Below are positions 4,282-4,827 of a DNA stretch of 38,737 nucleotides, in pieces. The notes under the pieces were generated by a model. It did no database searches and was not told the DNA's origin. It saw nothing but the letters and a program-made list of their open reading frames with translations. Source of the stretch: a virus. Its lineage: Duplodnaviria > Caudoviricetes. Location of the stretch: IMG/VR virus record IMGVR_UViG_3300033067_001866, positions 1 through 38,737 of that record; one strand, given 5' to 3'. The translations under genes were made by a program, and so were the position numbers. The stretch's first letter is position 1, and every line of letters begins with the position of its first letter.

Positions 4282-4827
4282 TCACACCTCCATCGGGCCG
4301 CGATCAGCGACCGCGGCAAAAAGCCCAAGTTGCCCATCCGCCGAGTCCGACGCTGGCGCCGACAGCGGCACCTCACCGGTCCCGGTCGACCCGAACCCAC
4401 CATCGCCCCGCGCCGTGTCCCCGAGGTCCTCCACCGACCCGACCGCCACGATCCGCACCCGCGGAACCGGCGCGATCACGAGCTGCGCGACACGCTCGCC
4501 GGGCTTGATGACCAGCGCCCGCGGGCCGTGATTGACCAACAGCACGATCACCTCGCCGCGGTAATCGCTGTCGACCGTGCCCGGGGCGTTGGTCACAGTG
4601 ACTCCGTACTCCCGCGCCAGCCCCGACCGCGGCCGGACCTGCCCCTCGTAGCCCTCGGGGATCGCCAGCCACAGACCGGTCGGCACTTCCGCCCGGTCGC
4701 CCGGGTTCAAGCGCAGCGGCACGCCGATCCGCGCAGACAAGTCCCAGCCCGCCGCGCCCGGCGTGGCCTGGGCAGGCAGCGCGCCGCCCTCGGCGTAGAC
4801 CTTGACTTCGACGATCTCATCGCTCAT
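4282..4827 (-). CDS. dut: Trimeric dUTPase with a C-terminal extension containing QLGLF
   Basis: Motifs [41 protein letters not shown]; start at MSDEIVEV with GGAGGT RBS. Confidence 0.95.

Follow-up and report, generated by a model that had tools for sequence, protein, structure and literature searches.

A phage dUTPase carrying a conserved beta-clamp-binding-type motif on a C-terminal tail

The dut-dnaN locus and the dUTPase tail

The window, that is, the whole stretch of DNA analysed in this study, is a 38.7-kb virus record with 71% G+C and an estimated completeness of 41%. A dUTPase gene (dut) lies directly upstream of a sliding clamp gene (dnaN) on its minus strand. The features of the locus are listed below.

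4282-4827, minus strand: dut, a trimeric-type dUTPase of 181 aa with a C-terminal extension (PF00692, NF001862, TIGR00576; AF2 model)
4381-4410, minus strand: dUTPase motif V, residues 140-149 (sequence; conserved in alignment A1)
4285-4380, minus strand: dut tail of 32 aa, residues 150-181, rich in Pro, Ala, Ser and Asp and predicted disordered (sequence, AF2)
4318-4332, minus strand: QLGLF, a clamp-binding-type pentamer, residues 166-170, with Gly before it as in E. coli Pol II
4285-4291, minus strand: GGAGGTG, the dnaN Shine-Dalgarno sequence within the last dut codons (sequence; same junction in the related loci L007 and L008)
3113-4279, minus strand: dnaN, beta sliding clamp of 388 aa (clamp domains, TIGR00663)
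894-3011, minus strand: class II ribonucleotide reductase downstream of dnaN (TIGR02505 best, below cut-off)
15826-16710, plus strand: thyX, whose product consumes dUMP (TIGR02170 over cut-off)

Along the minus strand, the junction consisted of GGAGGTG (4291-4285), the dut stop codon TGA (4284-4282), TC, and the dnaN start codon ATG (4279), which lies 2 nt past the dut stop. An earlier sequence-only reading of the window had placed the dut stop inside the ribosome-binding and start region of dnaN, and this was confirmed. The best family for the reductase was the triphosphate reductase RTPR (TIGR02505, E 1.6e-51), with 175 bits against a cut-off of 340. Triphosphate-type reductases make dUTP straight from UTP, and the RTPR-like reductase of the window is likely a direct source of dUTP. 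The thyX gene is 11 kb from dut on the opposite strand and showed no linkage to it. Elsewhere in the window, ssb was found along with thyX and with recombination and virion genes.

Several further genes of the window were recorded. An acidic ORF of 173 aa (4817-5338, minus strand) overlaps the dut start; it had no Pfam, PHROG or NCBIfam match, and it likely opens a dut-dnaN-reductase operon. The ORF at 22456-22851 (minus strand) matched the Acb2/Tad1 hairpin domain barely below cut-off (25.8 vs 27 bits) and is possibly an anti-defence nucleotide sponge. A match to a Mom-like DNA modification protein was found at 23211-23828 (minus strand; PHROG 1384, E 3e-11). Three Lar-like restriction-alleviation genes were matched with varying strength at 465-752, 6059-6424 and 18770-19192 (plus strand).

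The dut product scored 94.4 bits with PF00692 (cut-off 22; E 6e-27), 167.7 bits with NF001862 (cut-off 103) and 154.9 bits with TIGR00576 (cut-off 102.55). The dUTPases of this family are homotrimers. The invariant columns of alignment A1 included G27-D29, R65-G69, N80-D88, Q115 and R140-G149; the motifs through V were intact. The closest solved chain was 8y1q_A (E 6e-48), and no solved relative of the dUTPase matched past residue 160. In the AF2 monomer model, the core mostly had a pLDDT of 79-96 per block of 10 residues. The pLDDT was below 50 at residues 142-158 and 160-181, and motif V was low as well. The sequence-only reading had described a flexible tail of about 35 residues past motif V. 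The tail is present, acidic (net four acidic charges) and predicted disordered, but its length is 32 aa (4380-4285).

Tail length was surveyed in 83 viral dUTPase ORFs whose motif V could be read, after exclusion of 4 in which it could not, from 80 loci that were the best of 560. In 78 of the 83, the protein ended less than 18 aa past motif V, most within about five residues, in agreement with the earlier statement that most trimeric dUTPases end near this motif. Five ORFs had tails of at least 18 aa, and three of these carried QLGLF, QLSLF or QLSFF, equal to 3/83 unrelated viral dUTPases.

The pentamer QLGLF was found at 4332-4318, exactly where it had been reported, and was the sole match to Q[LMIV]x[LIM][FL] in any of the window's six reading frames. 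From composition, the expected number of matches in a tail-sized stretch was 0.0019 for the loose pattern and 0.00013 for QLxLF; over 20 window genes it was 0.48 and 0.03, respectively. Among 200,000 shuffled tails, 0.22% matched the pattern. The pentameric clamp-binding motif is defined as Q-aliphatic-x-[L/M]-[F/L] in the available text of a clamp review (PMC11139829), and QLGLF of dut fits this definition. According to the same source, QLxLF is the highest-affinity class, the flanks of such motifs are usually acidic, and Ile at position 4 or loss of the Gln weakens binding in E. coli work. The tails were net acidic in 18/18 checked. The attribution of QLGLF to E. coli Pol II was also correct: the Pol II peptide is TLMTGQLGLF (KD 1.7 uM, PDB 3D1E; PMC11139829 Table 1), and its overlap with the dut tail is six residues, GQLGLF.

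Conservation of the motif in near relatives

The near group was defined as 55 of the 120 best homologues listed. QLGLF was present in 52 of them; QIGIF and RLGLF occurred once each, and one member was tail-less. The motif was found in 0/65 of the other best homologues listed, a split that is partly built in because the homologue score includes the tail and ranks tail-bearers first. Across the 55 tailed rows, column conservation was 0.99 for GQLGLF, 0.78 for the linker, 0.77 for the downstream spacer and 0.83 for the core. The last six tail residues were also 0.99 conserved. The invariance of this end (PMEV/RGPMEV) arises because the dnaN Shine-Dalgarno sequence overlaps the last dut codons. 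RGPMEV was considered as a second motif and rejected, since the Shine-Dalgarno sequence explains it and the L067 type of tail, described below, does not have it.

Between the window and the related loci L007 and L068, all five motif codons differed, always synonymously. As read from these sequences, selection on QLGLF acts at the protein level. In four sequencing runs, one motif variant was present among the variants listed, and it was synonymous; none was listed at codons 2-5. A DNA-element reading was considered, the window motif using rare codons, and was ruled out because each of the five codons varied synonymously. An 81-aa ORF that overlaps this region (4158-4403, minus strand) was ruled out as the coded frame: over the motif, its residues changed in L007 and L008, but the dut frame was preserved.

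The surroundings of the motif were variable. The linker ranged from 8 to 16 aa. In the window, the distance from the motif to the Shine-Dalgarno sequence was 27 nt. The homologues P0031 and P0057 carried a different linker plus an acidic insertion, with the motif kept, and 18-20 extra residues stood between the motif and the Shine-Dalgarno sequence. In locus L067, the core was only 46% identical to that of the window and formed a separate long branch, and PGQVGLF stood at the end of the protein, with dnaN immediately downstream. PGQVGLF was also present in all 14 other members listed from the cluster of L067, which has 44 members. The tail that follows this 46%-identity core (L067:9408-10001) resembled those of P0031 and P0057. 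Sequence comparison suggests core exchange at motif V with retention of the tail in the L067 type.

A dnaN gene followed the tailed dut at every readable near-clade locus (L007, L008, L067 and L068), with clamps down to 41-52% identity. The consecutive accessions NBW77147 and NBW77148 suggest that this pair carries the same tailed dut-dnaN pairing. Given the common descent of the near clade and the overlap of the tail with the ribosome site of dnaN, linkage accounts for part of the conservation in this clade.

The phage clamp and tailed dUTPases in other phages

The window DnaN matched PF00712, PF02767 and PF02768, all above cut-off, and TIGR00663 with 152 bits (cut-off 137.65). Its nearest cellular-type clamps were 33-40% identical and had mixed labels. 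In the peptide pocket, 15 of the 17 positions checked matched the E. coli residue (subsites I and II, as named in the available text of PMC11139829). These positions were mapped by motif spacing with Val344 left out, and the change of His to Ser was seen directly against 6izo_A. The pocket columns of 27 phage clamps had an average conservation of 0.96, compared with 0.65 overall. The position of His175 was Ser in 27/27 phage clamps and in 8/9 more distant clamps of the alignment; that of Arg246 was Leu in the window and Leu, Met or Gln across the phage clamps. The changes at His175 and Arg246 may alter affinity. Within the clade, dnaN diverged much faster than dut (41-43% vs about 80% identity; window 3113-4279 vs L068:10001-11203), and the pocket was near-invariant.

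Docking of the dut tail on DnaN by ESMFold2 gave a score of 0.68, and the best of 3 controls gave 0.02. The modelled contacts were between dut residues 164-170 and clamp residues 176-181, 257-262, 335 and 381-386; the runs agreed in at least 70% of contacts, with a partner pLDDT of at least 47. The docking mark was reached by 116/157 solved complexes and 2/215 mismatched pairs. The sequence-only reading had proposed modelling of the tail with this DnaN. Residues 164-170 were indeed placed in the pocket, but since the structure of a like complex (3D1E) has been determined, the score may stem from memorisation by the model, which indicates likeness rather than binding.

The relation between tailed dUTPases and phage dnaN was investigated in 19 dnaN virus loci. 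A tailed dut was found in 2 loci, a tail-less dut 3 kb away in 1 (L079), and a MazG gene directly upstream of dnaN in 6, as follows.

L069:9504-9998: MazG directly upstream of dnaN
L070:1838-2167: MazG directly upstream of dnaN
L074:9387-9920: MazG directly upstream of dnaN
L075:9591-9917: MazG directly upstream of dnaN
L078:9357-9905: MazG directly upstream of dnaN
L081:3762-4295: MazG directly upstream of dnaN

These six MazG-family pyrophosphohydrolases, 5 of them over the Pfam cut-off, had no clamp motif. A trimeric dUTPase was not detected in any of the six records, so MazG may replace the dUTPase there. Searched over their full length, the other dnaN records had a trimeric dUTPase in 1/10 cases, and the GenBank phage set held 21 distant dnaN records. 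Genes for nucleotide house-cleaning often occupy the position next to dnaN; therefore, adjacency alone is no sign of binding.

A second family of tailed dUTPases was found in gut phages. Two viral pattern scans, which were not exhaustive and missed L067 and L068, gave 131 matches, 101 of them outside dUTPases and 30 in dUTPases. Of these 30, 14 were in frame, and the 16 others, about 7 of them distinct, were out of frame. All 14 in-frame loci were open through the motif, which lay near the C-terminus. The gut-family tails were of the QL[SGN]LF type, and most in-frame matches read E-Y-E-Q-L-S-L-F-D. The gut-family dut stood beside nrdD and nrdG where the neighbourhood was read. Its nearest GenBank matches were unannotated faecal phage records, and no cultured phage near this family was found in the GenBank phage set. 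The gut-family cores were 39-44% identical to that of the window and 62-70% identical to a tail-less enzyme. In a free tree, the tailed enzymes fell into three separate groups, and a single tailed clade was not rejected by the AU test (p = 0.147). The sequences suggest separate origins of the tailed dUTPases.

A dnaN gene was found in 0/12 gut-family records searched, of which one, G006 (121 kb with terminal repeats), is complete; in G006, no clamp was detected by Pfam on 55 of its ORFs. G006 and a second record, G002, encode Pol III alpha, and that of G006 had no canonical pentamer in the scan. Since no dnaN was found and Pol III alpha is encoded, the gut-family enzyme probably partners with the clamp of the host. 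An enrichment of QLxLF-tailed dUTPases in dnaN-encoding phages, which the sequence-only reading had anticipated, was thus not borne out, with no gut-family record and 2 of the 19 dnaN loci combining the two. The tailed dUTPase is tied to dnaN within the clade of the window (L007, L008, L067 and L068), with no general link.

When 1.84 billion representatives were searched with a profile, motif V matches dominated the output, and many of these had basic tails of a eukaryote-like kind. The pattern occurred in 7/146, compared with a shuffle mean of 0.39, and one of the seven (P0368) looked like chance; because the profile included the motif, this count is no frequency estimate. Among 50%-level representatives, the variant tails QLSLL, QITLY, QMSIY and QISFD were found, and QIEFF also occurred in a related tail. 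A GTDB scan with one codon choice gave 55 matches, with 1 in frame and 2 out of frame in dUTPases. The in-frame match sits in a prophage-type module, the same as the gut-family module. Tethering is dispensable in general, because most phage dUTPases are tail-less and the in-frame GTDB match is single. No UDG was found in 5 records, a result that is uninformative.

Other genes of G006 were also recorded. A 338-aa protein ending in QLTLFD (L304:9363-10376), upstream of a ThiF-family gene, had no Pfam or NCBIfam match; by its sequence it is a second candidate clamp client in a gut phage. At L305:777-4742, L305:9008-10207, L309:18150-19946 and L310:3363-3905, G006 had an NAD salvage set of isochorismatase, PRPP synthetase-like, NAPRTase/NAMPT and NAD synthase genes, together with RtcB, Tpt1/KptA and a weak RdRP-domain match.

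Interpretation and significance

The motif and the docking model predict that the phage dUTPase binds a beta clamp via its tail, with a probability of about 0.8. QLGLF on the flexible tail would plug into the peptide pocket of the clamp and hold the enzyme on replicating DNA. The partner would be the phage clamp where one is encoded and the host clamp otherwise. The dUTPase trimer would show three tails and could gain avidity on the train of clamps behind the fork. The earlier proposal that the enzyme rides the clamp at the fork is supported as to docking on a clamp, but not as to the place. During synthesis, Pol III alpha and epsilon probably occupy the two pockets of the working clamp (PMC11139829, available text), which makes clamps behind the fork the likelier dock. 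Many clamps stay on the DNA there as a docking platform (PMC4284645, available text).

The odds that local dUTP clearing by the clamp-docked dUTPase is the selected purpose are slightly better than even. The need for it would be sharpest here, since both families carry triphosphate-type reductases (RTPR-like NrdJ in that of the window; NrdD in the gut family). The product dUMP would reach thymidylate synthesis (ThyX) by diffusion. Nucleotides diffuse fast across a bacterial cell, and for this reason a local benefit is not assured. Phages may have grafted the clamp motif onto dUTPase more than once. The product would be a trivalent sanitiser that moves with sliding clamps and keeps dUTP low where phage DNA is made, a form of local pool control at bacterial replication sites that can be separated genetically, and it would be the first client of the clamp to act on a free nucleotide; this wider proposal is tentative and stands at less than even odds.

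Other explanations were weighed against local dUTP clearing. The tail might bind clamps for the sake of occupancy, the dUTPase being a convenient trimeric carrier. An abundant trivalent protein would then compete with host clamp clients (replication, mismatch or translesion repair) or scaffold phage factors. The gut family, without its own clamp, would bind that of the host, the enzyme core was apparently exchanged while the tail stayed, and QLxLF belongs to the class of highest affinity. The dUTPases are also known to moonlight (staphylococcal phage Dut-Stl; M. tuberculosis Dut-AdnAB, available text of PMC13309787). However, the catalytic motifs were intact across A1, every tail in the loci read was attached to a full dUTPase core, and dut stood among nucleotide-supply genes in both families. 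Occupancy as the purpose is considered unlikely. A generic address tag, cheaply acquired and giving weak clamp binding, enrichment in the replication zone and little dUTP-specific gain, is rather improbable. Short motifs do arise easily in disordered tails, as the variants QITLY, QMSIY, QISFD and QIEFF illustrate, a similar ending (QLTLFD) is found on the orphan protein of G006, and most dUTPases manage tail-less. Near-invariance nevertheless argues for real selection. In the window and in G005 (49 kb), no ORF other than the dUTPase had the pentamer, and in G004 the dUTPase held the only match in an identifiable gene; with the pentamer so confined, these three phages do not tag proteins broadly.

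The peptide might also be no clamp ligand, but pack on the dUTPase trimer, bind another partner or persist because it is linked to the translation signal of dnaN. Packing on the trimer lies outside the reach of the monomer model, the invariant RGPMEV end shows that linkage freezes part of the tail, and the four sequencing runs had no variant at codons 2-5 among those listed. Against linkage stand the synonymous changes at all five codons in other haplotypes, the 27 nt between motif and Shine-Dalgarno sequence, and the 18-20 residues inserted there in P0031 and P0057. The linker is variable in length, and the same consensus recurs in gut phages with no dnaN downstream. A peptide with no clamp role is therefore judged improbable, and clamp binding via the tail remains the preferred reading.

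The dUTPase shared with known clamp clients the six residues of E. coli Pol II (GQLGLF, 3D1E), a terminal flexible tail, acidic flanks and a modelled pocket; the clients include B. subtilis PolC (QLSLF), and the consensus is QL[S/D]LF (available texts of PMC11139829 and bioRxiv 10.64898/2026.05.27.728225). The clients described there act on DNA or replication proteins, whereas dut is a homotrimer that acts on a free nucleotide, its clamp binding being predicted here. The dUTPase is mentioned 0 times in the available text of the clamp review (PMC11139829). No described clamp-bound dUTPase was found in the full-text literature, which covered few subscription papers, in line with the sequence-only reading. 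Homotrimeric dUTPases (PF00692, TIGR00576, NF001862) have the same full core and motif V, and the tail is the addition of dut. The pairing of a known enzyme with a known motif is undescribed, conserved and wider than one phage.

In phage T4, the gp56 dCTPase-dUTPase belongs to the dNTP synthetase complex. This complex and the E. coli RNR "replication hyperstructure" likewise bring nucleotide enzymes near the fork (PMC2826317, available text, as for the rest of this comparison). The T4 link runs via the gp32 single-strand binding protein and not via a clamp motif, an RNR-DnaN interaction is reported in work cited there, and the E. coli case is disputed in the abstract of the same paper. Moonlighting dUTPases also have a protein partner in DNA transactions, but Dut-Stl and Dut-AdnAB use motifs IV-VI or a surface loop with no added clamp motif, and clamp, DnaN and replisome had 0 matches in the available text of PMC13309787. 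The MuC protein of phage Mu (PMC12867686) likewise recruits the beta clamp of the host, but it is a transcription activator and no nucleotide enzyme.

Whether the nucleotide pool is controlled locally at forks is a debate of several decades, in which most arguments came from large and poorly defined complexes (PMC2826317). With the tailed dUTPase, the question becomes a clean experiment, because a two-residue change separates position from catalysis in a small enzyme. If occupancy were the purpose, dut would be a new trivalent clamp competitor. If local dUTP clearing is the purpose, the list of clamp clients would widen from DNA-acting proteins to nucleotide metabolism, and phages would be exploiting a hub of the host to control the quality of DNA.
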